Below are positions 17,123 to 59,445 of a DNA stretch of 64,000 nucleotides, one piece after another. Position numbers and translations under genes: made by a program. Origin of the DNA: SAR202 cluster bacterium (lineage in GTDB: Bacteria; Chloroflexota; Dehalococcoidia; Lucifugimonadales; Lucifugimonadaceae); NCBI GenBank assembly GCA_009392285.1, contig VFGU01000012.1:164045-228044 (forward strand). The letters run 5' to 3'. Numbering within the stretch: the first letter of the stretch is position 1; each line of letters opens with the position of its first letter. Below the pieces are notes generated by a model. The model made no database searches, had not been told where the DNA came from, and was given only the letters and a program-made list of their open reading frames with translations.

Positions 17123-18298
17123 ATGAATAGTTTGAAAACAGATGTGATAGTCATAGGGTGTGGGCCAGGAGGCGCACAGACTGCAAGAAATTTATCTAGA
17201 AAAGGATTTTCTGTGGCATTGCTTGATTATAGGCTGAAGGTAGGAGATAAGTTATGCACAGGAATAGTTGGCACAGAGATGCTAAATCATTATCCAGAAG
17301 TTTCAAATTATGTTCTCAATAGATCTAGATCTGCAAATATTCATTGTGACAAAGATTATTTTTTAACAATTGAAAAAAATACAACTCAAGCTTTAATTAT
17401 TGATCGGGAGAAATTTATAAGGAATATTGCAATTGAGGCCGAAGATTCTGGAACTATACTGAGATTTCAACGATTGGTTAGTAATTTTGAGATATCTGAT
17501 GATGGTGTTGAAGTTTATGCAAAATATGATGGGGATATAGAGAAGTATAATGCCGATGTCTTGGTGATAGCATCAGGATATGGTTCAAAGTTAGCAAAAC
17601 GTGCTGGCTTTGGTTTAAGTGAGCATTATATATATGGATATCAGACTAAATTAAAGAATGTTGATGTTGATAAGGTAAATGTTTTTTCAGGAGACCCTCT
17701 TCCTAAAGGGCACTTTGGTTGGGTAGTTCCGACTTCTAAAAATAAAGGATATTGTGGAATATTAGGTAAAGAAAAATTGCAAAATAATGGCCTTGAATTT
17801 CTTTTAGATATGCAACAGAAATTTAATTTTGATATAGAAGGAAAAACAAAAGTTTGGGGCATACCTATAAGTCCAGTTGATAAAAAATCAAGAAATCGAT
17901 CATTATTAGTTGGTGATGTAGCAGGCCAAGTTAAACCCACAACAGGAGGAGGGATATATTTTGCTATGAGATCAGCAGATGTTGCAGCTGAGGTTATAAA
18001 TGATTCTTTATTAACTAGAGATTTTTCAGAAGAGCATTTTAATTCTTACTCCAAAAAATGGAATAATATATTTAAGAATGAATTGAGAATCGGATTTTTT
18101 GCTAGACAATTTTATGAAAGTCTAAATAGTGATGATATAAAGAATATTCTAAATCACATAGAAGAATCGGATCTTATCTCTAAAGATATCAATTTTGATT
18201 GGCATTCAAAAATTGTAATGATGGCATTTAAGACAAAAATTAAGTCTTATTTAAAAGGCAAAATGTTAAGTAAATTTAAAAGTTTAACTTTTAATTAA
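17123..18298 (+). CDS. FAD-dependent geranylgeranyl reductase family oxidoreductase
   Basis: DVIVIGCGPGGAQTA and VGDVAGQVKPTTGGGI. Confidence 0.8.
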   Translation: MNSLKTDVIVIGCGPGGAQTARNLSRKGFSVALLDYRLKVGDKLCTGIVGTEMLNHYPEVSNYVLNRSRSANIHCDKDYFLTIEKNTTQALIIDREKFIRNIAIEAEDSGTILRFQRLVSNFEISDDGVEVYAKYDGDIEKYNADVLVIASGYGSKLAKRAGFGLSEHYIYGYQTKLKNVDVDKVNVFSGDPLPKGHFGWVVPTSKNKGYCGILGKEKLQNNGLEFLLDMQQKFNFDIEGKTKVWGIPISPVDKKSRNRSLLVGDVAGQVKPTTGGGIYFAMRSADVAAEVINDSLLTRDFSEEHFNSYSKKWNNIFKNELRIGFFARQFYESLNSDDIKNILNHIEESDLISKDINFDWHSKIVMMAFKTKIKSYLKGKMLSKFKSLTFN

Positions 18299-20173
18299 AT
18301 TAATTATCTTTTGTGCAAGTTTACTTGATGATAGTCCGTGATAATCAATAACTTCTTCATTGGTGCCACTTTGTGGAATTTCATCTATCCCTATACTAGA
18401 TAGTTTTGTAGAGGAAATATCTAGGTTTTTAATTATATTAGCAATAAATTTTTCTCCAAAGCCCCCTTCTATATAATGATCATCAATTGTAATCACATGC
18501 CTGAAATCTTTTATTTGACCTTTTATCCAATTCAATGAAAATTTATTAAGCCAAGGAAAAGAAATTAATTTAGGATTTATATTATTTTCTACAAGAAGTT
18601 CTTTTGCTTTCCAAAGTTCTGCAAATATTAGAGGGCTATAGCAAAATATTGCTACTTCTTCTCCTTCAGAAATTACTGTACCCTCTCCCATTTTTATTAC
18701 ATTTTTATTTGGATATTTAAAAGGCAGATCAATAGGCAATGAGCACAATCTTATATATATATTATTGGTTGAATTTACAGCGTATTTTACTGCTAATGCT
18801 GTTTCTATTTCATTTAAAGGTTGTATCATTTCTAAATTAGGAATACCTGACATACTAGCTATATCTCTCACTGCTTGATGGGAGTGACCTGGTCCTCCCG
18901 GAAGTAAACCCGCTAGAGAACCTACATAAATTATTTTGGTTTTTTCTGTGGAATTATTATAGATCTGTTCATTTGGTCTACTAGTTAAAAAACTAGAAAA
19001 TGAATGAACAAATGGTATATAACCCTCTTTTGCAAACGATCCTGCCTGAGAAACCATGTCTTGTTCAGCAATTCCGCACTCAAAAAATCTATTTGGAAAT
19101 TTCTTTTCAAATTCAATTAATCCAGTGTCTAAAATTAAATCCCCATCTAATGCTATTATTCTTTCATTAGAAGATGCTTCATTAATGAGAGCTTTCGAGT
19201 AAGCATTAATAAGATTTTCGCTACCATTATTAACTTTCTTCTTATTTATAACTTCTTTATTTGAAAAATTAAAACTGTAATCTATGTTATTTGAATTGAT
19301 ATAATCATTTAATCTATCAACCAACTCTTTTATACCCTTGTTATAAGTTTCTTGATCTATTGATCCACTATGGAATTGATAAAATTCATCATCATTTAAC
19401 ATTGTTCCTTCCATAAATGAAACCCCACTTCCTTTCACAGTGTCTAAAATTATTACAGAGGGTTCATTTTCTTTAGAAATCCTATTAAATGCTTTTGAAA
19501 ATTCTTCAACATTATTACCGTCACAACGGACTGTATTAAGTCCAAATGATTTAAATTTACCTTCTAGATCTTTTAGGTCACTAGTGGTGCTAACTTTTCT
19601 GTCAGACTGAAATTTATTACTATCAACAAGGATTACTAATTCTTCCATTTTTTCTTGAACTAATCTGTTCATAGACTCCCATATTTGACCTTCTTGGAGT
19701 TCTCCATCGCCAGTCATAACGAAAACTTTACAATTTTTGTTTTTTAATCTGTTTGATTTTATTATTCCTTTTGCTTTAGAGATTCCCATTCCTAAAGATC
19801 CAGTGTTGGTAAAAATATTTGGAGTATTTATATCTGGATGACCAGGTAGGCCATCAATTTTTCTTAATTTATCAATTAATGAGAAGTTTAATTGCCCTAA
19901 AGATATCATTGCGCAATACATTGCTGGAGCGTCATGGCCTTTTGAAGAGAAGAAATATACATTTTCTTCCTTATTACTTATTTCTCCCATCACCCATGAC
20001 ATAACATCAATAGAACTAAACGAAGATCCAATATGACCTGACCCAGCATTACATATCATATAAAGTATATTTATTCTGCATAAATCAGAAAAAATTTTAT
20101 TTTTATGTAAAGGGTCTATTTCAATTGATAGCAAAGACTCAAAACTTTCTTTGTTTATATAAGATAGATTCAT
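18284..20173 (-). CDS. Fused (N+C section) transketolase-family TPP enzyme
   Basis: GHIGSSFS and GDGELQEGQIWES (PP domain), ECGIAEQDMVSQAGSFA (Pyr domain); 629 aa. It is the last gene of the neuB-led minus-strand string. Confidence 0.8.
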   Translation of the reverse strand: MNLSYINKESFESLLSIEIDPLHKNKIFSDLCRINILYMICNAGSGHIGSSFSSIDVMSWVMGEISNKEENVYFFSSKGHDAPAMYCAMISLGQLNFSLIDKLRKIDGLPGHPDINTPNIFTNTGSLGMGISKAKGIIKSNRLKNKNCKVFVMTGDGELQEGQIWESMNRLVQEKMEELVILVDSNKFQSDRKVSTTSDLKDLEGKFKSFGLNTVRCDGNNVEEFSKAFNRISKENEPSVIILDTVKGSGVSFMEGTMLNDDEFYQFHSGSIDQETYNKGIKELVDRLNDYINSNNIDYSFNFSNKEVINKKKVNNGSENLINAYSKALINEASSNERIIALDGDLILDTGLIEFEKKFPNRFFECGIAEQDMVSQAGSFAKEGYIPFVHSFSSFLTSRPNEQIYNNSTEKTKIIYVGSLAGLLPGGPGHSHQAVRDIASMSGIPNLEMIQPLNEIETALAVKYAVNSTNNIYIRLCSLPIDLPFKYPNKNVIKMGEGTVISEGEEVAIFCYSPLIFAELWKAKELLVENNINPKLISFPWLNKFSLNWIKGQIKDFRHVITIDDHYIEGGFGEKFIANIIKNLDISSTKLSSIGIDEIPQSGTNEEVIDYHGLSSSKLAQKIINLIKS

Positions 20174-20174
20174 A

Positions 20175-20933
20175 TTAATATGGCCTTTTATTTATTACAG
20201 GAAGTGTCGCTGTGCCGTTAGAGATTAGAATATTTGCTAATTCCCAATCTTCTTCAATATTTAAATCAAACCCTTCATCATTCATTGTAATAAAAGGGAT
20301 TACAGTATCTCCAGATATATTATTATATTTATTTACTGTTTCAGTGTATGCAATCTCTAAACTAGCATTTTGAACATATACCTCTGGCAGAGAGGGATAC
20401 TGCGAACTATGTAATGGCTGACCCAGAGGCCCTTTTTCTTCAAGGTTAACAAATGGAACCATATAATCATCTTCTATTTTCCACATTTTACATGGATGCT
20501 GAAGGCACTTTTCTACAGCTCTAAGAGAATCGCATTTTACAGAATTGAATAAATCAAAAGCCCTCAATATGGTTTCAGGTTTTCTGAATGGACTTGTTGG
20601 CCTCAAAATACTAAAGATTTTATAATCGGAACCATTATCTTTTAGATAATCTAAGGAATGTTTTACCCATTCTATATCTGGAGAGGTATCCTCTGCGTAT
20701 TCTTTAGGACGCATGAATGGAACATTAGCACCATAATATTCTGCTATCTCTTTTATATCTTCAGAGTCTGTAGAGACAATTATTTCATCAAATATATTAC
20801 TATTTGATGCAGATTGTATCGTATAAGCAATTAATGGGTGCTCTTTTAATTTATTTATATTTTTGTTTTTAACCCTTTTTGAGCCTGATCTTGCAGGTAT
20901 AAGTGCTATAGTTTTATTGCCCATATTTACCAA
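20175..20933 (-). CDS. neuA: Acylneuraminate (nonulosonate) cytidylyltransferase
   Basis: IALIPARSGSKRVKNKNI and LRPTSPFR. Confidence 0.88.
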   Translation of the reverse strand: MVNMGNKTIALIPARSGSKRVKNKNINKLKEHPLIAYTIQSASNSNIFDEIIVSTDSEDIKEIAEYYGANVPFMRPKEYAEDTSPDIEWVKHSLDYLKDNGSDYKIFSILRPTSPFRKPETILRAFDLFNSVKCDSLRAVEKCLQHPCKMWKIEDDYMVPFVNLEEKGPLGQPLHSSQYPSLPEVYVQNASLEIAYTETVNKYNNISGDTVIPFITMNDEGFDLNIEEDWELANILISNGTATLPVINKRPY

Positions 20934-21730
20934 GCTGTCCAGCCACCATCAATTATCATATTACTTCCAGTTATATATGATGATGCCGAACTAATTAGGA
21001 ATTGTATTGCCCCATTATATTCAGATTCATTTGCCATTCTTCCTAAAGGAACTTTTGAAGAGTAATTTTCTATAAATTCTTTATCTTGATTATCTAAAAC
21101 ACCTCCTAAAGTTAGAGTGTTTACTCTCACATTTTTATTGCCCCAATATGTGCTTAAGTACCTAGTCATATTAAGGATTCCAGATTTTGAAGCCGAATAA
21201 GATATAGGTTTGTTAAAGGTTTTTTCTCTATATTCATAAATTCTTTGGTCTGGAGAAATAATTCCATAATGAGATGAAATATTTATAATAGAACCAGAGT
21301 TATTTTTGGCCATCTCGGCACCAATTATCTGGCAACTAAGGAAGACACTTTTTAAGTTAGCCTCCATTATTTTATCCCAAGCCATCTCTGGATAATCTTC
21401 GAAAGGCCCATTTTGATCTTCTTCAGATCCTGGAGGTGAATCTAAGGCAGCATTATTAATTAAAGCATCAGGAACTCCAAGTTCATTAATCACTTGATTC
21501 AGTGACTCAGATATATCTTCCTTTTTTGTTAGATCAGTTTTAAAGAAAAAATAATTTTTATCTAGTAATTTATTAAGATTATCGGAGGGCGTATTTATAT
21601 CAAAATTGCAAATCACTGCACCATTATTTATAAGGTGATTTGTATAAATAGAGCCAAGTTTTCCGCTCCCACCTGTTAAAATAATGATCTTATCTTTTAT
21701 GTCAAAGATATTTTTTGATTTATTATTCAT
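20927..21730 (-). CDS. Short-chain dehydrogenase/reductase
   Basis: TGGSGKLGS Rossmann motif, NISS, and YSASK catalytic motif. Confidence 0.85.
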   Translation of the reverse strand: MNNKSKNIFDIKDKIIILTGGSGKLGSIYTNHLINNGAVICNFDINTPSDNLNKLLDKNYFFFKTDLTKKEDISESLNQVINELGVPDALINNAALDSPPGSEEDQNGPFEDYPEMAWDKIMEANLKSVFLSCQIIGAEMAKNNSGSIINISSHYGIISPDQRIYEYREKTFNKPISYSASKSGILNMTRYLSTYWGNKNVRVNTLTLGGVLDNQDKEFIENYSSKVPLGRMANESEYNGAIQFLISSASSYITGSNMIIDGGWTAW

Positions 21731-21740
21731 ATCTAGAAAG

Positions 21741-22262
21741 TCATTGATTTAATCTTTCGATTATATCGCAAACCTCTCTAACTGCACCATTCCCACCTTT
21801 GAGAACAGTTACATATTTAGCGAAATTAATTATTTCTGGGTGTGAATCCCTAACAACAATCGGTAGACCGCAAATCTTCAAGGCTCCAATATCATTTATA
21901 TCATTACCTACGAATGCTATATTTTTTAAATCAATTTTTTGATTTATAGAAATCTCTTTTAGTTTTTCTTCCTTGTGCGCTAAACCGTATTCACAATCTA
22001 TGTTTAATTTTTCTGCTCTTTTTTTTACACTTTCATTGGTTTCAGTGGAGAGTATTACCTTTTTTATTCCTAGGCTATCTAATTTACTTAACCCAAATCC
22101 ATCTAATTTGGATGATTTAACCATTTCTTCGCCTTTATCGTTTGAGTAGACGTAGTTATCTGTAAAAACCCCGTCAAAATCAAAGGCTACAAGTTTTATA
22201 TTTTTGAATAGATTTTTAGTTTTTTCTGGAATTTCATTTATGTGATCTAAATAATTTTCCAT
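21741..22262 (-). CDS. KdsC-type HAD phosphatase (ulosonate-phosphate phosphatase family)
   Basis: AFDFDGVFTDN motif I and VGNDINDIGAL motif; 173 aa, the KdsC / KDN-9-P phosphatase size class. Confidence 0.8.
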   Translation of the reverse strand: MENYLDHINEIPEKTKNLFKNIKLVAFDFDGVFTDNYVYSNDKGEEMVKSSKLDGFGLSKLDSLGIKKVILSTETNESVKKRAEKLNIDCEYGLAHKEEKLKEISINQKIDLKNIAFVGNDINDIGALKICGLPIVVRDSHPEIINFAKYVTVLKGGNGAVREVCDIIERLNQ

Positions 22263-22266
22263 TAGT

Positions 22267-23316
22267 TTATTCTATATCTTCAATCTGAAGAGTTTCATCC
22301 AGTTTGTAATCTTTCGTTAGTTTTTTACCTAGTACTTTTTCTAGCTCATTTGGTGAGATACCGTCTCCAGGAGACTTAAATGATAAATCATCTAAATTAA
22401 TAATAGAGCCTTTAGTTAAATCTTTTTTAGCAACTATTTTTTTGCCCATTTTAAATCTCGCAAGTTTTTCCTCTGATAACAATTTTTTTTCAGGATCACC
22501 TAATGAGAGCCTTACATTTTCTAATTCATCAATAAGTTCTTTTAATAGTTTAGGAGTTAACGAAAACTGATGGTCGGTTCCTTTTTGGGATCTATCTAGA
22601 GTAAAGTGTTTTTCTATAAACCTTGCACCTAACGCATAAGCTGCAACAGGTATTGAAATGCCTGAATCATGGCCTGAGTAACCTATTACAGTGCTAGGAA
22701 ATTCATCTCTATAGGTGCTGATTACATTAAGATTTATTGTTATTGGCTTTGCTGGATATATAGAAGTACATTGCATAATTACCACATTCGGGTTTATATC
22801 AATAACAAAATCAAAAGTTTTTTTAACTTCCCAAAAATCAGCAGCCCCAGTACTTATAATCATTGGTTTTTCAAATTTTGCTACCTTTTCTATTAACGGA
22901 AAAGTAGTTAGATCTCCAGATGCAATCTTGAAGCAATTAAGCCCCATTTCATTCAAGAAATCTGCACTTTTTAGATCAAATGGAGTTGCAAAGAATGTTA
23001 TTCCATTTTTTTCAGAGAATTTAAAGAGTTCTTCAAAATCATTATCACTTAACTCTAATTTGTCTCTATGCTCACCATATGTTGATGCAAAACTTTGAGG
23101 GCCAACATAAGATGAATTAAACATTTCTGAAGTAAATAATTCTTTATTATCCCTTTTTTGAAATTTTACCGCTGAAGCCCCACTTTCTTTTGCAGAAATT
23201 ATCATTTCTTTTGCATTATCTAAGTTGCCTTGATGATTATTGCCTATCTCTGCAATTACATAACATCTTGCTTCATCGTTAACCAATGTTTTATTAAAAA
23301 TGATTTCTCTAGCCAT
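22267..23316 (-). CDS. neuB: N-acylneuraminate/nonulosonate (-9-phosphate?) synthase with SAF domain
   Basis: IAEIGNNHQG, the NeuB TIM-barrel pattern, and a C-terminal SAF domain (KKIVAKKDLTKGSII). Confidence 0.9.
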   Translation of the reverse strand: MAREIIFNKTLVNDEARCYVIAEIGNNHQGNLDNAKEMIISAKESGASAVKFQKRDNKELFTSEMFNSSYVGPQSFASTYGEHRDKLELSDNDFEELFKFSEKNGITFFATPFDLKSADFLNEMGLNCFKIASGDLTTFPLIEKVAKFEKPMIISTGAADFWEVKKTFDFVIDINPNVVIMQCTSIYPAKPITINLNVISTYRDEFPSTVIGYSGHDSGISIPVAAYALGARFIEKHFTLDRSQKGTDHQFSLTPKLLKELIDELENVRLSLGDPEKKLLSEEKLARFKMGKKIVAKKDLTKGSIINLDDLSFKSPGDGISPNELEKVLGKKLTKDYKLDETLQIEDIE

Positions 23317-23366: not shown

Positions 23367-24527
23367 TTGAAAATAGTTTACATTACAAACGCCAGATTAC
23401 CGACCGAAAAGGCTCATGGAGTCCAAATTTTGAAAATGATTAAAGCGTTTTCAGGTTTAGGAAACCAAACTGTATTGGTTCACCCAAAACGACATCAGAG
23501 AGAAATTTCCCATAAAACTGATGTATTTGATTTTTATCAAATGGAAAAGGTTTTTCAAGTTAAATCTTTAAAATTTATTGATCCTTATATTTTTCGCCCA
23601 TTTATGCCCAAATTTTTATATAGATTTTTCTCATTTATAATAGATTTTATCTGGGGCATTTTTTCGATTAATTATACTAAGAAATATAGCCCCGATTTCT
23701 TGATTTTTAGGGATAATACTCCATTTAGTTTATTTTTTTCATATTTTTCTGGAATTCCTAGTGTAATTGAGTTTCATGATATGCCCCCACTAATATCAAA
23801 AAGAATATTCAAATTTACTTTAAAACGAGCAAAAAAAATTAAGTGTTTTAGTGTTACAAAAAAATTATCTTTGGATTTAGAGAATTATTTTGGTCTTGAT
23901 GGAGGTTCAATTAAAGTTTTGCAGGATGCTGTAGACTTAGAAGATTATATAGGTAAACCTAAAATTAAGAGTTCTTCAGACATGCCAATTTTAACCTATT
24001 GCGGCTCTTTAAGTCATGAAAAAGGAGTAGATTTATTATTAGAAACTGCAACTAATTTAGAGGGTTTTCAAATAATAATAGTTGGAGGACTAGGCGCAGA
24101 GGTAAAAATTTATTCTGAAAAAGCCAAAAAAATGAATATTGATAATATTAGGTTTATTGGCCAAGTATTACCTTCAGAAGTCCCTAATTACCTCAATTCT
24201 TCAGATATTTTGTTATTACCTTCAAGTGCAAAATCAAAGAAATCTAGAGAATATACTTCTGCAATGAAACTTTTCGAATATCTGGCATCAGGGATCCCAA
24301 TTATTGCATCTAATATACCCTCAAATACTGAAATTTTAACTGGAGATAAAAATTGCATTTTATTTAATCCTGATGATTCGGACAGTCTAGTTCGAGAAAT
24401 AAAAAAACTTTGGCAAAATTATGACTTGAGAGAAAAGATATCTCATAATTCTATTGAATTATCTAAAGAGTTTACCTGGGAAAACAGATGTAAAGTAATA
24501 ATTGACGAGATAAAACAAATCAAATGA
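23367..24527 (+). CDS. Glycosyltransferase family 4 (GT-B)
   Basis: EKGVDLLLE and the EX7E-type region SAMKLFEYLASGIPIIAS. TTG start. Confidence 0.85.
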   Translation: MKIVYITNARLPTEKAHGVQILKMIKAFSGLGNQTVLVHPKRHQREISHKTDVFDFYQMEKVFQVKSLKFIDPYIFRPFMPKFLYRFFSFIIDFIWGIFSINYTKKYSPDFLIFRDNTPFSLFFSYFSGIPSVIEFHDMPPLISKRIFKFTLKRAKKIKCFSVTKKLSLDLENYFGLDGGSIKVLQDAVDLEDYIGKPKIKSSSDMPILTYCGSLSHEKGVDLLLETATNLEGFQIIIVGGLGAEVKIYSEKAKKMNIDNIRFIGQVLPSEVPNYLNSSDILLLPSSAKSKKSREYTSAMKLFEYLASGIPIIASNIPSNTEILTGDKNCILFNPDDSDSLVREIKKLWQNYDLREKISHNSIELSKEFTWENRCKVIIDEIKQIK

Positions 24528-25651
24528 ATTCATCTAATAAAAAACTTATAGCCATATTCGCACCTTTCCTAAATCCTGTAGGTGTAAAAAGAGCTACTTT
24601 TGGCCTTGCAAAAGAATTTTCTAAAAGTGGTTATGAGATAGATATGCTAAGCATACATAAAGAGTGGAATGATTTAGATTTATTAGAAAATATGAGATTA
24701 ATTAGGCTTTCCGACATTTTTAATAATTTTCCGACTACTGGTTATATTAAATTCAGATTAGTTTCTTTTCTTATCGCAGCCAGAACCATTTTTACTATTT
24801 CTAGTTATCTTAAGAAGAATAAACCAGGAATACTTTTTGTATCGATGATGCCAGTAGTCGCATGGCTTGGTTTGAAGATATCGGGGCAAAGATCATCTAC
24901 AAAGTTGGTAATTAGTGTCCAAGGTTTTCCAATAAATAATTTCTTTAGAAGATTTTTATGGAGAAGGGTTTTTCAGGATTCTCAAGATGTAATAGCTGAG
25001 TCAGAAAGTTTGAAAAGTAAATTAGAAAATATGACAGGGAATAGTAATCTAAATTATATTTACAATCCGCATTTTGAAAATCAGCATGATTTTGATGCAA
25101 ATTTTAATAATATAAATGAGGAAAATGATTTCATATTAGGCCTAGGACGACTTACTAAGCAAAAAAATTTTAAATTATTAATTCATGCATTTAGTAATTT
25201 GACTAATATCGATAATCTTGACTTATTAATTATTGGCGATGGAGAGGAAAAGGCTAATTTAGATAAGTTAATTGAAAAGTTAGATTTATCATCAAGGGTT
25301 AAATTGTTAGGTGAGATAAAAAATCCATTAGGATATATAAAGAAAGCACGAATATTGATTATTCCATCTTTGTGGGAAGGCCTTCCAAGAGTTGCTGTTG
25401 AGGCTCAAGCCCTCAGAACACCTATTATTTCTTCATGTCACGAAGGAGGGCTTGGTGAGATATTGATGAATGGTGATGCAGGCCAAATTACTGGAAAAAA
25501 TGATCCAATAGAAATGAAGAATGCTATTGAAAAATATATACAAGATGAGGATCTTGCTAAGAGTCATGCTGATTTTGCCTTTAAGAATTTGAATAGGTTT
25601 TCGCTTTCTTCTTCAGCAAAAAAATATCTAAATATTTTTTCGAGGTACTGA
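24524..25651 (+). CDS. Glycosyltransferase family 4 (GT-B)
   Basis: GRLTKQKNF and PSLWEGLPRVAVEAQALRTPIISS. Confidence 0.85.
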   Translation: MNSSNKKLIAIFAPFLNPVGVKRATFGLAKEFSKSGYEIDMLSIHKEWNDLDLLENMRLIRLSDIFNNFPTTGYIKFRLVSFLIAARTIFTISSYLKKNKPGILFVSMMPVVAWLGLKISGQRSSTKLVISVQGFPINNFFRRFLWRRVFQDSQDVIAESESLKSKLENMTGNSNLNYIYNPHFENQHDFDANFNNINEENDFILGLGRLTKQKNFKLLIHAFSNLTNIDNLDLLIIGDGEEKANLDKLIEKLDLSSRVKLLGEIKNPLGYIKKARILIIPSLWEGLPRVAVEAQALRTPIISSCHEGGLGEILMNGDAGQITGKNDPIEMKNAIEKYIQDEDLAKSHADFAFKNLNRFSLSSSAKKYLNIFSRY

Positions 25652-25652
25652 T

Positions 25653-26570
25653 ATGTACAAAGTTGATGATATTACAGTATTAATAGCAACAAAAGACAGG
25701 GTTGATGAAATTGAAAGAGCAATTCAAAGTTCGATAAACCAATCACTTAAAGTTAATATAGTGGTTCTCGATGATTCTTCTGAAATAAATATAAAAGAAA
25801 AACTTGAAGATAAATTTAAAGATAAGCCTATTAAATGGATGAGATCTAGTGCGCCATCTGGAGTAGCTGGGGCAAGAAATAAGCTTGTTGAAGGGTCTGA
25901 GGGGTCTATAATGGTTTTCTTAGATGATGACGCTTATTTTACTGATAAATATTCTCTAGAAAATATTATAAAAAAATTTTCCACTTCTGATGAAATTGCA
26001 GGAATGGCTTTCAAAATAATATTAAGACAAAATGATGATGGCCTTCAAATTCCTTTTAATAGGTTAAAAAGATTTTTAAATAAAAATATTCATAATGAAG
26101 AGTCTGATGTGTCTTATTATGTCGGCGCAGGGCATGTGTTATTAAGAGAAACTTTTGAAAAAGTTGGGGGCTATGACTCTGAACTTTTTTACGGACTTGA
26201 AGAACTGGATATTAGTTCCGAGATAATAAAAGAAGATAAAAAAATAATTTATTTTCCTCAAGTTCAAGTAATACACGAACCCAAGAAATCGGTTGTAGAT
26301 AAGAAGAATAAATTAAAGGATGAAGCTTATTACAGCATAAGAAATAGAATTTGGGTTTCTTATAAACATCTTCCAGCAATGTATCTAGTAGTACACCTAA
26401 CAGTATGGGGTTCATTTTATTTTTTGAAGTCATTGCTTAAATTCCAATTAGGGAAATTTTTTATCGCTACTTTTGAAGGTTTTAAAAAGTTGAATTCCAA
26501 AGATAGGAAGCCATTTAATTCTAGTGCCCTAAAGTATCTTAAGAGAAACAATGGGAGGCTTTGGTATTAA
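25653..26570 (+). CDS. Glycosyltransferase family 2 (GT-A)
   Basis: VLIATKDR, VVLDDSS and FLDDDAYF (DXD). Confidence 0.85.
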   Translation: MYKVDDITVLIATKDRVDEIERAIQSSINQSLKVNIVVLDDSSEINIKEKLEDKFKDKPIKWMRSSAPSGVAGARNKLVEGSEGSIMVFLDDDAYFTDKYSLENIIKKFSTSDEIAGMAFKIILRQNDDGLQIPFNRLKRFLNKNIHNEESDVSYYVGAGHVLLRETFEKVGGYDSELFYGLEELDISSEIIKEDKKIIYFPQVQVIHEPKKSVVDKKNKLKDEAYYSIRNRIWVSYKHLPAMYLVVHLTVWGSFYFLKSLLKFQLGKFFIATFEGFKKLNSKDRKPFNSSALKYLKRNNGRLWY

Positions 26571-27628
26571 ATATGGATGATTATTTAAAGGTTGGAATTT
26601 CAGTAATAATACCTACACGAAATGAAGAAGATTACATTGAAGAATGTATAAATTCTCTTTTAAATTGCCGGAGTATTCAGGCATCTAATTTTATTGTTGA
26701 TTTTATAATTGTAGATGGAATGAGCACAGATAAAACAGTAGATATTATTAAAGAAAAATTTGGTCATTTGAATTTAAAAATTTTAAATAACCCTAATCTT
26801 TATCAGTCATATGCCATGAATATTGGAATTGAAAATAGCAATAATATAAACGAAACTTCATTGATTATTAGAGCCGATGCTCATTCGAAATATCCTCAAG
26901 ATTATATTTTTCAATGTTGGCAAGCCTCCTTTAATACTTGGGGAGGGAATGCGGGATCTGTTCAAAAGGCAGTAGGAACTAATTTCTTTACAAGGATTGT
27001 TGCTGATGTAATGAATTCAGGGTATGCGATGGGGGGTGTTAGTTATAGAAATATAAAATATGATCCATTTAATCCAACAACTCAATATATTGATTCGGAT
27101 ACAGCATATCTTGGCAGCTGGAAAAGATCAGATTTAATTGAGTTAGGAGGTTTTAATGAAGAGTTTCAAATTAATGAAGATTATGAATTAAATATTAGAT
27201 TAAGGAATAATGGAAGGAAGGTAATTGTAGTTTCAGATTTAATTGTTGAATACTTTGTTAGAAGTTCTTTATTCGGTTTGATAAAACAATTTTTTAGATA
27301 TGGTTTATGGAAAACTAAGACATTGTCTTTACATCCTGACTCTTTAAAATTAAGACAGTTAGCTCCTGTTTCATTTGTATTATTTTTATTTGTATTAGGA
27401 ATTGGAAATTTAATTTTTGCGGGTGACTTATTATTATTTATTAATGCATCATCAATATTGATAGGGACTCTTTGGTTGATTATGATTTTATTAATTTGGA
27501 AAAATTCTTCAAATTTATTCAGCATCTTTTTGATTCCTTTTATTGTGCTATCAATGCATATTTCTTGGGGTCTAGGATTCTTGTATGGTCTTATAAGATG
27601 GGCTAGAGGAGGATGGAATAAATCTTGA
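26561..27628 (+). CDS. Glycosyltransferase family 2, ExoA-like, with C-terminal TM helices
   Basis: ISVIIPTRNEE, IIVDGMSTD, RADAHSKYPQDY, and about three C-terminal TM segments. Confidence 0.8.
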   Translation: MVLNMDDYLKVGISVIIPTRNEEDYIEECINSLLNCRSIQASNFIVDFIIVDGMSTDKTVDIIKEKFGHLNLKILNNPNLYQSYAMNIGIENSNNINETSLIIRADAHSKYPQDYIFQCWQASFNTWGGNAGSVQKAVGTNFFTRIVADVMNSGYAMGGVSYRNIKYDPFNPTTQYIDSDTAYLGSWKRSDLIELGGFNEEFQINEDYELNIRLRNNGRKVIVVSDLIVEYFVRSSLFGLIKQFFRYGLWKTKTLSLHPDSLKLRQLAPVSFVLFLFVLGIGNLIFAGDLLLFINASSILIGTLWLIMILLIWKNSSNLFSIFLIPFIVLSMHISWGLGFLYGLIRWARGGWNKS

Positions 27629-28239
27629 GATCTAGAACTTATAAATTAAAAAGACCACTTGATATATTAATGATAATAGGTGGATTACTGCTTCCTTTAT
27701 TATGGCCTCTGTGGTTAATAGTAATATTCATTATCCCCTTGTTAATTTGGATAGAAGATAGGGGCCCAATTTTTTATTCTCAAGATAGAATTGGTAAAAA
27801 TAAAAAAGTTTTTAAAGTTATTAAGTTTAGGACTATGATACCTGATGCAGAGAAGGTTTCTGGTGCAGTATGGTCCACAAAAGATGATCCTAGAATTACT
27901 AAAATTGGACATATTCTCAGAAGGACAGCACTAGATGAGATTCCTCAATTACTCAATATATTAAAAGGTGAGATGAGTTTTGTTGGGCCTAGAGCTGAAC
28001 GACCAGAACTTCATGAAAAGTTTGCAAAAGAGATTCCGGGTTTTGATAAAAGATTAGATGTTACTCCTGGGTTATCAGGATTAGCACAGATAAATGGCTC
28101 ATATGATTTAGACCCTAAGGATAAGTTAGTATTTGATATTGATTATTCACAAAAGATGAGTTTATTTTTTGATATAAAAATAATAATAATTTCTGTATTT
28201 AATAGTATTGCTGCTAAATGGGATCAGCCAGATAAATGA
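27625..28239 (+). CDS. Small (PglC-like) polyprenyl-phosphate phosphoglycosyl transferase
   Basis: Bacterial sugar transferase motifs RPLD, DEIPQLLNILKGEMSFVGPRAERPE; 204 aa with one N-terminal membrane segment. Confidence 0.88.
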   Translation: MRSRTYKLKRPLDILMIIGGLLLPLLWPLWLIVIFIIPLLIWIEDRGPIFYSQDRIGKNKKVFKVIKFRTMIPDAEKVSGAVWSTKDDPRITKIGHILRRTALDEIPQLLNILKGEMSFVGPRAERPELHEKFAKEIPGFDKRLDVTPGLSGLAQINGSYDLDPKDKLVFDIDYSQKMSLFFDIKIIIISVFNSIAAKWDQPDK

Positions 28240-28241
28240 TA

Positions 28242-31046
28242 TTATTCTGCCCTTACTTCTAATATCTTAACTTCAAAATAAATAGTTGCATTAGGGGGGA
28301 TTAAGTTTTTGACTCCTACAGATCCATATGCCATTTCAGGAGGTATAACTATCCTAGCTATACTACCTTCTCCTAGGCCTAAAATCCCACTTTCAAAACC
28401 TTCTACTGCTAGACCCATTCCAGCCTTAAAAGTTAAAGTATTTACATCTTCAAAATATGAACTATCGAATATGCATCCATTTGAAAGCCATCCGGTATAA
28501 TCAAGTTTTACAACATTTCCAGGTGATATTGTTAAGCTGCCTTTATTTAACTCTTGCTTAACGCCAACAATGACTCCATTATCTAGTTCATTATTGTATA
28601 AAACGTTACTATCTTCGAATTTAGGTTTATCGCTCGGATATTCTTCATTCCTACAAATGATGTCCCATTCAGGTACTATTTCCCCTTTTATTATTCCGAG
28701 ACTTTCATCCCAAAAATTTCTCCAGTTTGGTGGTATAACTTTTTTCCATGTTTGAATTAAAGGTTCTGCATTAATAGGATCATTCATTAGTAGGGCAATC
28801 CTTATTTTAAGCTCAAGAGTTTGGATTGAATTAGGGGATAATTCCTCTAATTTATTAAGAATATTTATAGCAACATCTAAATTATTGGCATCATATGCTG
28901 CTAAGCTAGTATAAACGCTTGCGGCTCCAAAATGAATGTTGAAATGATCAGGCTCAACTTCTATCCCTTTTCTGTATTCCTCAGAAACTAGCCCAACTAA
29001 AGAAGTATATGCTTCAGCAAATTTATCCGCTTCACTCGCCATCCCAAGCATTTTCTCCATATCCCTCCTTACTATGTACATAAGCTCTTGCCTTCCATAG
29101 TTAGATAACGGTTCAAATTTGTTTATATTTTCTTGAGCCTCAATCAATGAAGTTGGAGATCCAAGAGGAGGGGTGACCTTCGCAGCCTGAAATGGGATAG
29201 CAACATAAGACCTAATGACTAATATGGTTACTATGGGGATAATTATTGCTGCAACAATAACCATAGAGTCTTTTACAAATGCCTGTTCTTTGGTTTCTTT
29301 AGTTACATTAATTTCTAATTCATCCTTTTTACCAAAACCTTGCTCTGTTCTTGTCAGAAATGCAATTAATAGCATTATTTGTAGAAATATTGAAGATACT
29401 GCGAAATTAAACATTGAAAAAGTTACATAAGAAATAAAGAAGCACCCTAAAAGCATCCAAAAAATATTTTCTGAATCGCGCCTTAAGGCCCTTTTTGTGA
29501 TTAAGATTCCAATATAAATCCAGAATGATATAAGTGCTATAAAACCAATGATTCCTGAAGTTGCCATTATATGAAGAACTCTGTTGTGAGCCCTATCAAA
29601 ATGAGGTTTGTCATCTGCCATATTTTCATTATTTAAATTTATGTATTTATAATGAAGAACAGGAAAATTTTCAGGCCCAATACCAAATATTGGATTATCG
29701 ACAAACCCTTTCCATGCTGCACTCCAAGCAAAACCTCTTTCTCCAATATCAAATCCAGACCTGAATGGATAAGATATTCCTGATCCAAATAATGAAATAA
29801 ATTTCATGGTAGAAGTGCACTCTCGGAAGGAATCTCTTTCGGTCAGCCAAAAATAAGTTAATAATTGATCTGAACAAATCCTTGATTTCATTTCAGGTTC
29901 AGATATTTTTCCAGTCTTTACCATATGTTCTAGCAATTGCTCCATAGAAAGTCCTAACTTTCCAGATGATTTCTCTATTTCATTATATTCTTGAACAACT
30001 GAAAGTCCGGGGATTATAGAGGCTATTTCAGACCTTTCTTTATCAGCATTAAGCCCTTTCCAATTGGGACTTTCTTCAAAAACTTCTATAGGGAAATACT
30101 TAGAAAGAACCTCGATTCTTAAATCTTCTCTTTGAGATTCAATTGTGGTTGTTATGAAAAAGAAGGTCGGAATTAAAATGATTATCAGAGTTACCGGAGC
30201 CAATGTAAATTTTCTAATTTTTTTATAAACGATTGACAGCATAATAGATATTAATAGAATTGAAGCCGCTATACCGATTAATGATGCCCTAGATCCTGAA
30301 CTTAAAATCGTCCATATAGAAATAAGAGAAGCAATTCCAGCAATTACCACATAAGTTTTAGATGATTTTTTTAGAGAAGCATATGTATTAAAAATCGATA
30401 ATCGATAATTTATTTTGAATTCTCTATAAATTAAAGCTATTGAACTAAAAGTCACCATTGATAAATATGTTGCTAAATAGGATGGATTTCCAATTGTAGA
30501 CTCTACCCTTTCTCCTCCTGTATAAGATCCCTCAGGATTAACAACTAGAGGAAAGATGTCCAAGCCTCCTACTAAAGGTATTACTAAATCTAGAGACTCA
30601 AAAAAACCTAAAGTAGCAACGATTAAGCCGACAAAAGTATTTACCTTCCATAAATTTATCCAAGATAATTTAGTCTTTAGAACTGAAAAAGCTATCAATA
30701 TGAAAATGAGCCAATGAAAATATTCAACAACTCCTTCCATTCTCTCCCAATTACCCCAAAAACTATTTTGGGGGCTAGAACCAAATAATCCGGCTAATGC
30801 TTGCGATAGCACAAAGAGTGAAAAAAGTAATATTAGGGTACTTTTTTCAGGTAAATATTTATTGTTAACAGTTATAAGGATTAGCCATAAGCATGATATT
30901 GAATAAATTACCCCTCTAAACCATAACGACTTCCCCACTACAAAAGGGAAAACAGTTTCAGGAGAAACTACTAGAGGCAGGAATAGTATTAACGAGAGTC
31001 CTAAGAAGATTAATTTAGGAAAGTATGTATTTATAAATATTCTCAT
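28242..31046 (-). CDS. Wzy_C (O-antigen ligase / O-oligosaccharyltransferase family) polytopic membrane protein fused to a helical-repeat region and a C-terminal FKBP-type peptidyl-prolyl isomerase
   Basis: More than 10 TM helices, a large loop ending in HFDRAHNRVLHIMATSGIIG (Wzy_C signature), and a further TM near residue 600. A roughly 200-aa helical region follows. The FKBP domain reads GNVVKLDYTGWLSNGCIFDSSY..FKAGMGLAVEGFESGILGLGEGSIARIVIPPEMAYG..IPPNATIYFEVKILEV (about 28245-28575). Confidence 0.8.
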   Translation of the reverse strand: MRIFINTYFPKLIFLGLSLILFLPLVVSPETVFPFVVGKSLWFRGVIYSISCLWLILITVNNKYLPEKSTLILLFSLFVLSQALAGLFGSSPQNSFWGNWERMEGVVEYFHWLIFILIAFSVLKTKLSWINLWKVNTFVGLIVATLGFFESLDLVIPLVGGLDIFPLVVNPEGSYTGGERVESTIGNPSYLATYLSMVTFSSIALIYREFKINYRLSIFNTYASLKKSSKTYVVIAGIASLISIWTILSSGSRASLIGIAASILLISIMLSIVYKKIRKFTLAPVTLIIILIPTFFFITTTIESQREDLRIEVLSKYFPIEVFEESPNWKGLNADKERSEIASIIPGLSVVQEYNEIEKSSGKLGLSMEQLLEHMVKTGKISEPEMKSRICSDQLLTYFWLTERDSFRECTSTMKFISLFGSGISYPFRSGFDIGERGFAWSAAWKGFVDNPIFGIGPENFPVLHYKYINLNNENMADDKPHFDRAHNRVLHIMATSGIIGFIALISFWIYIGILITKRALRRDSENIFWMLLGCFFISYVTFSMFNFAVSSIFLQIMLLIAFLTRTEQGFGKKDELEINVTKETKEQAFVKDSMVIVAAIIIPIVTILVIRSYVAIPFQAAKVTPPLGSPTSLIEAQENINKFEPLSNYGRQELMYIVRRDMEKMLGMASEADKFAEAYTSLVGLVSEEYRKGIEVEPDHFNIHFGAASVYTSLAAYDANNLDVAINILNKLEELSPNSIQTLELKIRIALLMNDPINAEPLIQTWKKVIPPNWRNFWDESLGIIKGEIVPEWDIICRNEEYPSDKPKFEDSNVLYNNELDNGVIVGVKQELNKGSLTISPGNVVKLDYTGWLSNGCIFDSSYFEDVNTLTFKAGMGLAVEGFESGILGLGEGSIARIVIPPEMAYGSVGVKNLIPPNATIYFEVKILEVRAE

Positions 31047-31051
31047 TGATT

Positions 31052-31975
31052 TTAAGAGTCCTTTAGATGACTAATTGTTTTTTTGAGTCCTTCTTGTAGG
31101 CTAGTTTTAGGTTTCCAATTCGATATTCCTAAAGCTTTAGAATTATCTAATTCAATCCCAAATATATCCCCTTCCCTAGAATTACTCATAACTGGTTCAT
31201 CTTTGTAATCAACTATTTCTTTTAGGCTATTGAATATATCAATAGTTTTTGTTTTTTGCCCAGAGCATAGATTATAAGTTCCAGTTATATTCCCTTCTGT
31301 AATTTTTTCAATGAAATCCACAACATCATCAATGTATATATAATCTCTGTATTCATTTCCTGTGCCAAAGATAGTCACTGGTTCATTTTCTAGCATTTTT
31401 TTTCCAAATATTGATACTACCCCTGCTTCTCCGTAAGGATTTTGGCCAGGACCAAATACATTACTTGGCCTTATTACAGTAGAAGGCAGATTAAATTTGT
31501 CTGAATAATAGGTTAAATATTTTTCAAAACTAGATTTTGACATACCGTAGGGACTTTGAGGGTCAACCGTGTCATCTTCATTGAATTTTCTACCAACTTT
31601 CTCTCCATATATTGCTCCACCGGTTGAAAAGAATACAAATTGAGTTAATTTTAGCTCCAAGGCAGATTTTAATATATTTAAGGAGCCTCCAACGTTCACA
31701 TCATTGTCTAGAACTGGGTCTTTAGAAGATATAGCCACACTTGCCTGTGCTGCAAGATGAATAATTTTGTCAGGCTTGATTTCTTGAAAATAATCTTTAA
31801 TTTTGTCCGACCTAATATCTATTTTTTTGTACTTAATATCTAAATTTGTTTTAGGTTCTTCTATATCTAGTACATATATTTCATTATTTTTGTGTCCAGA
31901 TAACTTAGATGTTAAAGCAGATCCAATAAAGCCAGATCCACCTGTAATTAGTATTTTATTTCTTATATTTGTCAC
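31052..31975 (-). CDS. NAD-dependent nucleotide-sugar epimerase (GalE-like)
   Basis: GTG start, ITGGSGFIGS, and YGMSK. Confidence 0.85.
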   Translation of the reverse strand: MTNIRNKILITGGSGFIGSALTSKLSGHKNNEIYVLDIEEPKTNLDIKYKKIDIRSDKIKDYFQEIKPDKIIHLAAQASVAISSKDPVLDNDVNVGGSLNILKSALELKLTQFVFFSTGGAIYGEKVGRKFNEDDTVDPQSPYGMSKSSFEKYLTYYSDKFNLPSTVIRPSNVFGPGQNPYGEAGVVSIFGKKMLENEPVTIFGTGNEYRDYIYIDDVVDFIEKITEGNITGTYNLCSGQKTKTIDIFNSLKEIVDYKDEPVMSNSREGDIFGIELDNSKALGISNWKPKTSLQEGLKKTISHLKDS

Positions 31976-55656: not shown

Positions 55657-56499
55657 TTAATCTAATGATGGTTTTCCTGGAAATAACAATCCTGATGAGA
55701 ACTTACCTATTATGTCTAAAAATTGTTTTGGAAATATATAAGTCTTCCCAGTTTTATCTTCTATTATTCCTTTAGGTGACCCATCACTACATATTGCGTA
55801 AAGCCCAATATTCTCATTTTCTAATTCAAATTTTATTTGATATAAGAATGTACATTTTTCTTCATAATTTTGACTTAAAGGAATATTAATAGTTTCAATT
55901 AGATCATCTTTTTCATCTTCATTTAATATTTTTAATTCTTCATAAATTCCATCTGCAAGCCTATTAATTATGATTTTTTTTGAGTTATCTAAATTTAAAG
56001 ATTCAACCAAATTTTCTGTATTATCCCAACTTATAGTTGAGCAGTTTACATAATACGATCCATCTAAATTAGAATGAATTTCATAATTTTTATTATCAGC
56101 ATTAAATATAATTATCCATCCTGGTGTTAAAACTTGAGCGTATAATTCTCCTGGCTTCGGGCACTCTAAACTTGCATTGTTGAAAATATATTCTTTATAA
56201 GATTCTACTTGAATATCTGATGGAGGAATATTTAATTCAGTAGATAGTTCTGCAATAAATAAACCCCCGAAACTTGGAATCTGAGGTGTAGGAGTCGGAA
56301 TTGGAGTCGGAATTGGAGTCGGAGTTTTTATTATTTTAACTTCAGGAATTGGAGTCGGAGTCGCAAACATTGGGTTCATTGCACCTGTACCTTCTTTTTC
56401 ATTATCTACAAGTGTTTGAAAAAGAACCAAAGACACAATTGCAACAGAAGACAATACTACAATTACTGTTCCAATAATTTTAAATAGGGTTTTATCCAT
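55657..56499 (-). CDS. Hypothetical membrane-anchored extracytoplasmic protein with a Pro/Thr-rich linker
   Basis: N-terminal TM helix, then TPTPIPEVKIIKTPTPIPTPIPTPTPQIP, then a roughly 200-aa domain with four Cys. I recognise no family. Confidence 0.6.
   Translation of the reverse strand: MDKTLFKIIGTVIVVLSSVAIVSLVLFQTLVDNEKEGTGAMNPMFATPTPIPEVKIIKTPTPIPTPIPTPTPQIPSFGGLFIAELSTELNIPPSDIQVESYKEYIFNNASLECPKPGELYAQVLTPGWIIIFNADNKNYEIHSNLDGSYYVNCSTISWDNTENLVESLNLDNSKKIIINRLADGIYEELKILNEDEKDDLIETINIPLSQNYEEKCTFLYQIKFELENENIGLYAICSDGSPKGIIEDKTGKTYIFPKQFLDIIGKFSSGLLFPGKPSLD
56291..56362 (-). repeat. 12-bp tandem repeat (GGAGTCGGAATT x3, plus one more copy 24 bp away) encoding the (TPIP/TPTP) linker
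   Basis: Units at 56291-56302, 56303-56314 and 56315-56326 (one mismatch), with a related unit at 56351-56362. Confidence 0.85.
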
Positions 56500-58299: not shown

Positions 58300-59445
58300 A
58301 TGAAGAATTTATTTATAAGTATTGTTATTTCTTCTTTGGCTCTTTTTGCTTTAGCTTGCGGATCTACTGAGGCGGAAGTTCAAGTAGTGAAAGAAGTCCA
58401 AGAAGTTGAAGTTGTTAAAGAGGTGCCTGTAGAGGTTGTTAGAGAAGTTGCAGTTGTAGAAGAAAGGGTAAAAGAAGTTGAAGTTATTAAAGAAGTTGAA
58501 GTTGAAAAAACTCCAAAACCTTTAGTAATTTACTCTGGAAGGAGTGAGTCTTTAGTCGGTCCAATTATTGCTCAATTCTCAGAGGCAACTGGAACTCCAG
58601 TTGAAGTAAAATACGGAAAAACAGCTGCTATGGCTGCTACATTATTAGAAGAGGGGGATAAGACTCCAGCTGATGTTTTCTTTGCGCAAGATCCAGGTGG
58701 ATTGGGTGCTGTTGAATCAATGTTAGCAACTCTTCCAGCAAATATTACAGAGTTAGTACCTGACTGGGCAGATTCTCCTGATCGTAAGTGGACAGGTATC
58801 TCTGGAAGAGCAAGGGTGGTAGTGTACAACACGGATGCAATTAGTGACCCTGCCACTCAGCTCCCTGATAACATTTATGATTTTATTGATCCTAAATGGA
58901 AGGGAAAGATTGGATGGCCTCCGACCAATAGTTCTTTTCATGCTATGGTTACTGGAATGAGGCAAACTTGGGGTGAAGAAAAGACAAGGACTTGGCTTGA
59001 AGGAATAGTAGCTAATGGAGCCAATGTTTATGCTAAAAACACTCCGACAGTTGAAGCAGCAGGAGCAGGCGAAATTGAAGTAGGATTTGTTAATCACTAC
59101 TATTTGCACAGATTCATAGCTGCTAATACAGAAAGCTTCAAAGCAAGAAACTACTTCCTTCCTGGAGGTGGTCCTGGTTCGGTTGTTTTGGTTGCAGGTG
59201 CAGGAGTATTAGAAGCATCTGATAACCCAGATGGAGCAGAGGCATTCATCAGATTTATGCTTTCTGCGCCAGCTCAGGCATACTTTGCTAACCAGACTTA
59301 TGAGTATCCTCTTGTTGAAGGTGTTAAGAAAAATCACCTTCTTCCAGATCTTGATACATTGAATCTTCCAGATATTGATATATCTGATTTAGGAGATATA
59401 GAGGCAACTCAAAAATTACTGCAAGAAACAGGAGCGCTTCCTTAA
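58300..59445 (+). CDS. ABC transporter substrate-binding lipoprotein, Fe(III)-type (FbpA/AfuA-like)
   Basis: Lipobox ALFALAC, an acidic EV-repeat linker, then VIYSGRSESLVGPII..ADVFFAQDPGGLG. Followed by a two-domain permease and an ATPase. Confidence 0.8.
   Translation: MKNLFISIVISSLALFALACGSTEAEVQVVKEVQEVEVVKEVPVEVVREVAVVEERVKEVEVIKEVEVEKTPKPLVIYSGRSESLVGPIIAQFSEATGTPVEVKYGKTAAMAATLLEEGDKTPADVFFAQDPGGLGAVESMLATLPANITELVPDWADSPDRKWTGISGRARVVVYNTDAISDPATQLPDNIYDFIDPKWKGKIGWPPTNSSFHAMVTGMRQTWGEEKTRTWLEGIVANGANVYAKNTPTVEAAGAGEIEVGFVNHYYLHRFIAANTESFKARNYFLPGGGPGSVVLVAGAGVLEASDNPDGAEAFIRFMLSAPAQAYFANQTYEYPLVEGVKKNHLLPDLDTLNLPDIDISDLGDIEATQKLLQETGALP
58372..58512 (+). repeat. Low-complexity (E-V-x-V-V/I-K-E-V)n coding repeat forming the lipoprotein tether
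   Basis: Encodes EAEVQVVKEVQEVEVVKEVPVEVVREVAVVEERVKEVEVIKEVEVEK. A roughly 20-bp unit, GAAGTTGAAGTTGTTAAAGA at 58402-58421, recurs with one mismatch at 58474-58493. Confidence 0.7.

Follow-up and report, generated by a model that had tools for sequence, protein, structure and literature searches.

What a membrane-bound glycan ligase gains from a fused peptidyl-prolyl isomerase (PPIase), and to which acceptor such an enzyme would transfer its glycan, are questions raised by a gene of a SAR202 cluster bacterium (GCA_009392285.1, contig VFGU01000012.1). In the window, the whole 64,000-nucleotide (64-kb) stretch of that contig that was analysed, the minus-strand interval 28242..31046 is a single continuous open reading frame (ORF) of 934 amino acids (aa) with an ATG start. 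The initial annotation had described this ORF at exactly these coordinates as a Wzy_C glycan transferase followed by a TPR-like region and an extracytoplasmic FKBP domain, and had proposed that it is a protein O-oligosaccharyltransferase (O-OTase) with a built-in foldase. The protein is predicted here to be an en-bloc glycan ligase of the WaaL/PglL superfamily that gained its outward-facing FKBP module in the ancestor of one marine clade. What is new is a sister lineage with an identical locus, in which the orthologous protein stops exactly where the FKBP module begins.

The two sequence strings that the initial annotation quotes are found in the protein: HFDRAHNRVLHIMATSGIIG spans aa 482-501 and VKLDYTGWLSNGCIFDSS spans aa 846-863. 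Of its three proposed parts, two score above their Pfam cut-offs: Wzy_C (PF04932) with 50.4 bits against 31.7 (E 2.6e-13, aa 428-506) and FKBP_C (PF00254) with 71.7 bits against 21.1 (E 6.3e-20, aa 840-928, profile positions 5-93 of 94). The TPR part falls below threshold (TPR_11, 13.6 bits against 26.8), although the helical region at aa 625-790 is homologous to the bona fide TPR domain of relatives of about 730 aa. NCBIfam models recognise only the FKBP part (FkpA-, BamJ- and Mip-like, with best similarity to FkpA and BamJ); no polymerase, ligase equivalog, TuaE or exosortase-ligase model matches at E<=1. The protein-coding features, including the transmembrane (TM) helices, are as follows:

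28242..31046, minus strand: whole ORF, stop codon included, with Wzy_C ligase core, TM13, TPR-like domain and FKBP (from the ORF, Pfam, homologues and AlphaFold)
30153..31046, minus strand: TM helices 1-9 of the WaaL-fold core (aa 1-298), with invariant R180 and R253, the latter in an SGSR motif (from hydropathy, model and conservation)
29556..30152, minus strand: large extracytoplasmic loop (aa 299-497), made up of a variable insert specific to the clade (299-430; C391/C410 invariant) and, at 431-497, the conserved catalytic part
29544..29603, minus strand: HFDRAHNRVLHIMATSGIIG (aa 482-501), the ligase motif H487-N488-x9-G498-x2-G501, common to WaaL 7tpg and 9rmk
29340..29555, minus strand: TM helices 10-12 (aa 498-569)
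29175..29291, minus strand: 13th TM helix (aa 586-624; hydrophobic core 593-611), predicted to carry the C-terminal half outside
28677..29174, minus strand: helical TPR-like domain (aa 625-790), from homology to the TPR domain of FKBP-less relatives
28530..28676, minus strand: conserved linker (aa 791-839; IPEWExxC798xNxxYPxDKPxF), which arrived with the FKBP module, the FKBP-less relative P0123 ending just before it
28245..28529, minus strand: FKBP_C domain (aa 840-934; invariant Y850, C858, F860, D861, Y907 and F924)

A full-length AlphaFold2 model built on a 75-sequence alignment (pLDDT 86.3, pTM 0.81) consists of 12 TM helices with the large loop at aa 299-497, a long 13th helix at 586-624, eight helices at 634-787 and the FKBP beta-sheet at 817-932. 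No PDB sequence was matched by the TM domain as a single sequence, so that a profile was needed; one built from the 75-sequence alignment matched mainly generic TPR proteins in the PDB. Restricted to the TM part, a profile matched WaaL of Cupriavidus metallidurans (7tpg, E 1.7e-16) and a 610-aa 'Oligosaccharyltransferase' (9rmk, E 3e-10). FKBP matches overwhelmed the Foldseek search made with the full-length model, and a TM-only model was therefore built (pLDDT 86, pTM 0.87), for which WaaL 7tpg was the only significant match (E 5.8e-5, TM-score 0.59 on the target). The motif H-N-x9-G-x2-G (H487 to G501) is common to all three proteins, H487 and R253 have aligned counterparts in 7tpg and 9rmk, and R180, R253, D484 and H487 are invariant across the 75 sequences, relatives of only 20% identity included. 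The catalytic residues described for Escherichia coli WaaL (H338, R288 and R215) and PglL (H349, R298 and R224) form an Arg/Arg/His set (PMC3643930) which the invariant residues of the 934-aa protein match, R180 being the probable equivalent of R215 of E. coli WaaL. The modelled core has the 12-TM WaaL fold, with an additional TM13, and is predicted to be an en-bloc glycan ligase of the WaaL/PglL superfamily. The catalytic loop and the FKBP domain are the two best conserved regions of the family, with mean pairwise identities of 65% and 60%, and the loop insert 299-430 is the least conserved (31%).

Hydropathy likewise gives 13 TM segments. Averages over 30 family members show a clustering of lysine plus arginine (K+R) in each even-numbered loop, amounting for example to 3.8 residues in loop 8-9, which is eight residues long, and to 3.5 in loop 10-11. 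In the odd-numbered loops and in the 310-residue C-terminal part, K and R are sparse or the net charge is acidic. This bias indicates a cytoplasmic N-terminus, 13 TM helices and an outside C-terminus. The loop of WaaL that bears the His is periplasmic and precedes three TM helices; the presence of a fourth in the 934-aa protein agrees with this orientation. Four invariant cysteines fall within parts predicted to be outside: C391/C410 belong to the loop and C798/C858 to the FKBP module. The charge bias, the comparison with WaaL, the invariant cysteines and the lipoprotein nature of FKBP relatives together predict that the FKBP domain is outside the cell, as the initial annotation had supposed.

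The FKBP domain is complete in sequence and fold. It superposes on the domains of Mip, FKBP12 and FKBP51 with a root-mean-square deviation of 1.7-2.0 A at 30-37% identity. Residues Y26, F36, D37, Y82 and F99 of FKBP12 correspond to the invariant Y850, F860, D861, Y907 and F924; the pocket residues F46, V55 and I56 are conservatively replaced (L871, A880 and V/I881), and the position of W59 is occupied by F, I or M in the fusion family. These pocket residues fit a predicted FKBP-type peptidyl-prolyl isomerase, and the domain probably has PPIase activity. Two invariant cysteines, Cys798 of the linker and Cys858, which precedes F860/D861 by two residues, are seen only where the FKBP module is present and may form a disulfide or a redox switch near the active site. 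The fused FKBP is 40-48% identical to other FKBPs of Chloroflexota. Among its closest relatives are Anaerolineae lipoproteins in which linkers rich in Thr, Pro and Glu precede two or three FKBP domains in tandem (L013 9614-10717; L070 9815-11116), and L070 additionally encodes a 2696-aa protein with long PTPTNTPT linkers. The exported foldases FkpA and Mip and the tandem-FKBP lipoproteins of Chloroflexota have a Mip-like fold in common with the fused domain, but they are chaperones that stand alone, either soluble or lipid-anchored, and frequently have tandem domains or a helix for dimerisation, whereas the fused FKBP is a single domain on a polytopic glycan ligase and has the clade-specific Cys798/Cys858 pair.

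All occurrences found of the architecture, whose distribution the initial annotation had left to be surveyed, are in low-GC marine Chloroflexota/SAR202. A search of 5.8 billion proteins found about 70 clusters of 915-946 aa with both domains and 46-97% identity. They come from independent ENA, JGI, NCBI, Tara and Logan assemblies, all of them marine metagenomes or metagenome-assembled genomes; those with names are from Dehalococcoidia or Chloroflexota and are annotated merely as 'FKBP-type peptidyl-prolyl cis-trans isomerase'. In a scan of one genome per GTDB species, the full-length gene was present in ten species, every one of them a marine member of Chloroflexota with a low GC content (29-34%); one of the records bears the title SAR202 cluster isolate AG-893-A15. 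An exhaustive hidden Markov model (HMM) search of 1.84 billion representatives contained only three full-length proteins with both domains among the best 150 matches; fusions that arose independently and have a much more distant Wzy_C part may exist with lower scores. The initial annotation knew of no characterised Wzy_C-FKBP fusion, and a literature search likewise found nothing specific. That the fusion is an artefact of assembly, frameshift or gene calling is next to inconceivable: nothing was found in favour of it, and the 915-946-aa protein recurs, with a conserved linker and a continuous frame, in about 70 clusters from independent assemblies and in the genomes of ten species.

The closest relative without an FKBP is P0123, a protein of 829 aa that scores 389 bits in an alignment spanning profile positions 8-792; the locus around its gene, in a sister marine lineage of 27-29% GC, matches that of the fusion gene by gene. 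Its C-terminus immediately follows the final helix of the TPR-like domain, and tblastn detected no remnant of an FKBP. The FKBP-less 829-aa orthologue is found at L085 10001-12490 and also in L086 and L087 (Tara); the L085 protein shares only about 24% identity with the window protein across aa 401-790, against 43-78% for the neighbouring genes. The retention of the locus around an enzyme without FKBP indicates that the FKBP is accessory to ligation and dispensable for it. By parsimony, a 144-residue module of linker and FKBP was probably added to an existing Wzy_C-TM13-TPR enzyme in the ancestor of the clade. More distant relatives have either the TPR region only or a C-terminal concanavalin A (ConA)-like Laminin_G_3 domain; in P0139, P0159, P0165 and P0189 (916-973 aa) this ConA-like lectin domain is located where the FKBP would be. 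The outside C-terminus of this enzyme family therefore appears to be a slot for exchangeable binding or processing modules. Other distant Wzy_C-TPR relatives are uninformative about the acceptor, as P0076, P0089 and P0100 are encoded in glycan clusters adjoining MurB and SecA, and P0124 and P0125 stand alone among housekeeping genes. One metagenome-assembled genome (GCA_027624915.1; L083 8001-12393) has two tandem paralogous Wzy_C genes, of 736 and 730 aa, adjoining three PMT_2 (GT-C) genes, a CotH kinase-like gene, MurB and SecA.

The ligase gene is the last of an epimerase-ligase pair and converges with an operon of glycosyltransferases (GT) and a phosphoglycosyl transferase, next to a sub-cluster for a nonulosonic acid:

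31052..31975, minus strand: NAD-dependent sugar epimerase/dehydratase, directly upstream of the ligase gene on the same strand
27625..28239, plus strand: PglC-like polyprenyl-phosphate glycosyl-1-phosphate transferase of 204 aa, convergent with the ligase gene
23367..27628, plus strand: four glycosyltransferases (GT4, GT4, GT2 and a GT2 with about four C-terminal TM helices)
18284..23316, minus strand: nonulosonic-acid sub-cluster, comprising a NeuB-like synthase, a KdsC/KDN-9-P-phosphatase-like HAD protein, a PtmA-like SDR protein, a PseF-like cytidylyltransferase and a transketolase-like enzyme

PglC is the best PDB match of the initiating transferase over its full length. The second GT2 (26561-27628, plus strand) has a synthase-like or lipid-GT-like membrane domain at its C-terminal end. 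The full-length transketolase-like thiamine diphosphate enzyme (18284-20173, minus strand) is kept in the nonulosonic-acid sub-cluster of every lineage, the FKBP-less one included, and hints at an unusual modified sugar. The whole locus, flanked by argJBD, is identically arranged in ten of ten species, and this identical arrangement indicates that it belongs to the core genome rather than to a variable island. Within it the ligase is the fastest-evolving gene, at 51% identity versus 53-93% for the other locus genes in L004. Among all larger ORFs of the window there is no flippase, Wzz or other chain-length regulator, second Wzy_C gene, polymerase, S-layer gene or second PPIase, and the window contains no lpx or outer-membrane genes.

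The envelope of the host narrows the choice of acceptors. Streamlined SAR202 bacteria, with genomes of 1.1-2 Mb and 29-33% GC, are described as having no genes for lipopolysaccharide (LPS) or peptidoglycan and as having S-layer walls rich in glycoproteins (PMC11994032). Cultured SAR202 cells are monoderm, with an S-layer-like coat and no encoded peptidoglycan synthesis (PMC10444878), the sialic-acid genes of SAR202 have been proposed to function in S-layer decoration (PMC5395668), and a Chloroflexota archaellin probably carries O-glycans on Thr (PMC12488501). None of these four papers, nor PMC2943079, names a transferase for glycosylation of the SAR202 coat. If neither lipid A-core nor murein is available, the acceptors left to consider are proteins and membrane glycolipids, and the sequence by itself cannot tell which of the two is used.

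The window offers one plausible protein acceptor, to which the initial annotation had already drawn attention:

55657..56499, minus strand: candidate acceptor, a membrane-anchored protein of 280 aa with a positionally invariant Thr/Pro repeat and no Pfam match

It is the only exported protein of the window with a Pro/Thr-rich segment. Its homologues (29 clusters) are confined to the same clade as the fusion, and its globular part contains four invariant cysteines. The T and P positions of the repeat (ATPTP...TPTPIPTPIPTPTP; TPTPxPTPxPTPTP) are invariant among homologues of 34-88% identity, which is unusual for a mere spacer and fits a site of modification. The tether of 58300-59445 (plus strand), which the initial annotation had counted among segments of an O-glycosylated type, is to be discarded as an acceptor, having almost no Ser or Thr. 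It belongs to a solute-binding lipoprotein (lipobox LFALAC|GS) and is an E/V/K-rich repeat of about 50 aa (VKEVxVEV...), as in tethered solute-binding proteins of monoderm style.

Several known systems resemble the fusion in part. WaaL has the same 12-TM fold, the catalytic His and Arg and the H-N-x9-G-x2-G motif in its outer loop, but it is a protein of about 400 aa with a cytoplasmic C-terminus and no TM13, TPR or FKBP, whereas the fusion extends to 934 aa with an outside domain of 310 aa; its acceptor, lipid A-core, is reported to be absent from SAR202 (PMC11994032). The 934-aa protein is therefore not a WaaL O-antigen ligase in the strict sense. O-OTases of the PglL/PglS class (9rmk, 610 aa) likewise combine a Wzy_C core with an additional extracytoplasmic helical or TPR region at the C-terminal end, and the genes of these general enzymes are not linked to those of their targets; they differ in that PglL_A and Wzy_C_2 are undetected in the fusion, in coming from diderm Proteobacteria and in having no described FKBP. 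The C-terminal domain of PglL is predicted to face the periplasm (PMC12645811), and TPR motifs are found at the C-terminal ends of PglL and WsfB and in a partner of WsaB (PMC2943079). In overall architecture the fusion thus resembles protein O-OTases rather than WaaL. The S-layer O-OTases WsfB of Paenibacillus alvei and WsaB of Geobacillus stearothermophilus belong, by description, to monoderm hosts. To the Wzy_C part is added a TPR, at the C-terminal end in WsfB and as a partner protein in WsaA/WsaB, and both enzymes are encoded, as is the fusion, in glycan-assembly clusters with an initiating transferase (PMC2943079). They have no FKBP, and the locus of the fusion has no adjoining S-layer gene or ABC exporter.

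Taken together, these observations lean modestly towards a protein O-OTase for surface glycoproteins, in which an outward-facing FKBP would serve as an accessory foldase. That reading is strengthened by the reports on SAR202 of missing LPS and peptidoglycan genes, an S-layer-like coat and sialic-acid genes; in a lineage reported to have neither LPS nor peptidoglycan, the fusion is the best current candidate for placing sialic-acid-like glycans on surface proteins. Several observations weigh on the other side. PglL_A (PF15864) and Wzy_C_2 (PF11846) were not detected in the 934-aa protein at E<=1; these domains are missing also from the O-OTases TfpO and TfpM, and so their absence does not exclude O-OTase activity. 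WaaL and PglL are inseparable by simple sequence analysis, no sequence feature distinguishing a protein from a lipid acceptor (PMC3643930). Neither a flippase nor an S-layer gene nor another acceptor adjoins the locus, the ConA-like lectin domain of relatives would equally suit a glycan-directed enzyme, and the absence of LPS and peptidoglycan from the organism of the window rests on papers about SAR202, not on its own genome. P0123, in the same locus, also raises the possibility that the FKBP is functionally independent of the ligase. The argument of the initial annotation that a covalently attached PPIase only makes sense with a polypeptide acceptor was accordingly overstated, given this orthologue and the stand-alone FKBP lipoproteins of other Chloroflexota.

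The same observations admit a ligase for glycolipids, with a lipoteichoic acid (TacL-type) or a lipoglycan as its product, as in wall-less cells, and an FKBP that shares no substrate with it but acts as an independent general foldase, anchored in a streamlined genome by fusion to an abundant envelope enzyme. TacL of Streptococcus pneumoniae is a precedent, being a Wzy_C-family lipoteichoic-acid ligase of a monoderm that makes no use of lipid A-core and acts on a glycolipid; it differs from the fusion, by description, in that glycolipid acceptor and in lacking TPR and FKBP. Such an enzyme would be consistent with the best sequence and fold match (WaaL), with the membrane domain of the second GT2, and with an orthologue that occupies the same locus without FKBP. 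Moreover, the nearest FKBPs in other Chloroflexota are stand-alone lipoproteins with two or three tandem domains, candidates for general foldases, and the fusion could simply anchor such a foldase at the membrane. Yet the TPR-like domain and the FKBP are both protein-binding modules, the FKBP is as conserved as the catalytic loop and has a co-evolved conserved linker containing a cysteine, fusion partners are usually functionally linked, and the literature expects glycoproteins, not lipoglycans, on SAR202 (PMC11994032); we consider a glycolipid product rather unlikely, though it is the main alternative. Considerably less probable is a Wzy-type polymerase for repeat units of a capsule or exopolysaccharide, with an unrelated FKBP. 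PF04932 also includes polymerases, and the gene diverges faster than those around it, a common trait of Wzy genes; but the ligase motif and the Arg/His triad are common to WaaL and an OTase, none of the NCBIfam polymerase, TuaE or exosortase-ligase models matched, the 64 kb contain no Wzx, Wzz, CpsBCD-type regulator, tyrosine-kinase or LCP partner, and the locus belongs to the invariant core genome and is no variable serotype island. With neither partner genes in the window nor a model match, the protein does not qualify as a Wzy polymerase of O-antigen or capsule.

If the protein is an O-OTase, the PglC-like transferase would start an oligosaccharide on polyprenyl phosphate at the inner face of the membrane, and the four glycosyltransferases, with the CMP-nonulosonic-acid pathway, would extend it. 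The lipid-linked glycan, the probable donor, would then be flipped by an enzyme not found in the window. In the outer loop, the site formed by His487, Arg253 and Arg180 may transfer the glycan to Ser or Thr (or Tyr) of exported surface proteins, for example S-layer proteins, archaellins or Thr/Pro-rich tethers. The outward TPR-like domain would bind the acceptor polypeptide, and the FKBP, as an accessory prolyl isomerase or holdase, could either keep Pro-rich acceptor segments accessible or fold the client afterwards, so that the two activities of the fusion would be coupled. A more far-reaching proposal, which we hold to be doubtful and offer tentatively, is that the single polypeptide constitutes a self-contained surface-glycoprotein factory in a wall-less, LPS-less, S-layer-coated cell. 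The TPR-like domain might capture Thr/Pro-rich segments as they leave the translocon, the FKBP might hold or isomerise their prolyl bonds for the ligase that loads the sialic-acid-like glycan, and the clade-specific gain of FKBP might have tuned site occupancy in the only wall material of the cell. The analogy is with the eukaryotic oligosaccharyltransferase (OST), to which Ost3p/Ost6p (TUSC3/MagT1) are attached as a folding-modulating module that raises site occupancy by way of the acceptor polypeptide. Ost3p/Ost6p differ from the fused FKBP in being thioredoxin-fold oxidoreductases of unrelated sequence and fold, and separate subunits on the N-linking STT3 enzyme.

SAR202 bacteria are abundant in the ocean, and both the genome papers and the cultured isolate indicate an envelope made of a membrane and a glycoprotein coat. 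The fusion gene provides a concrete, testable candidate for the glycosylation of this coat, and the occurrence of the same locus with and without the FKBP module provides a natural control. If the two activities prove to be uncoupled, the fusion would show that streamlined genomes economise by welding a general foldase to an envelope enzyme. Coupled activities would make it the first oligosaccharyltransferase of bacteria to contain its own folding catalyst, convergent with the OST-associated oxidoreductases of eukaryotes, and it might serve the glyco-engineering of Pro-rich or slow-folding acceptors.

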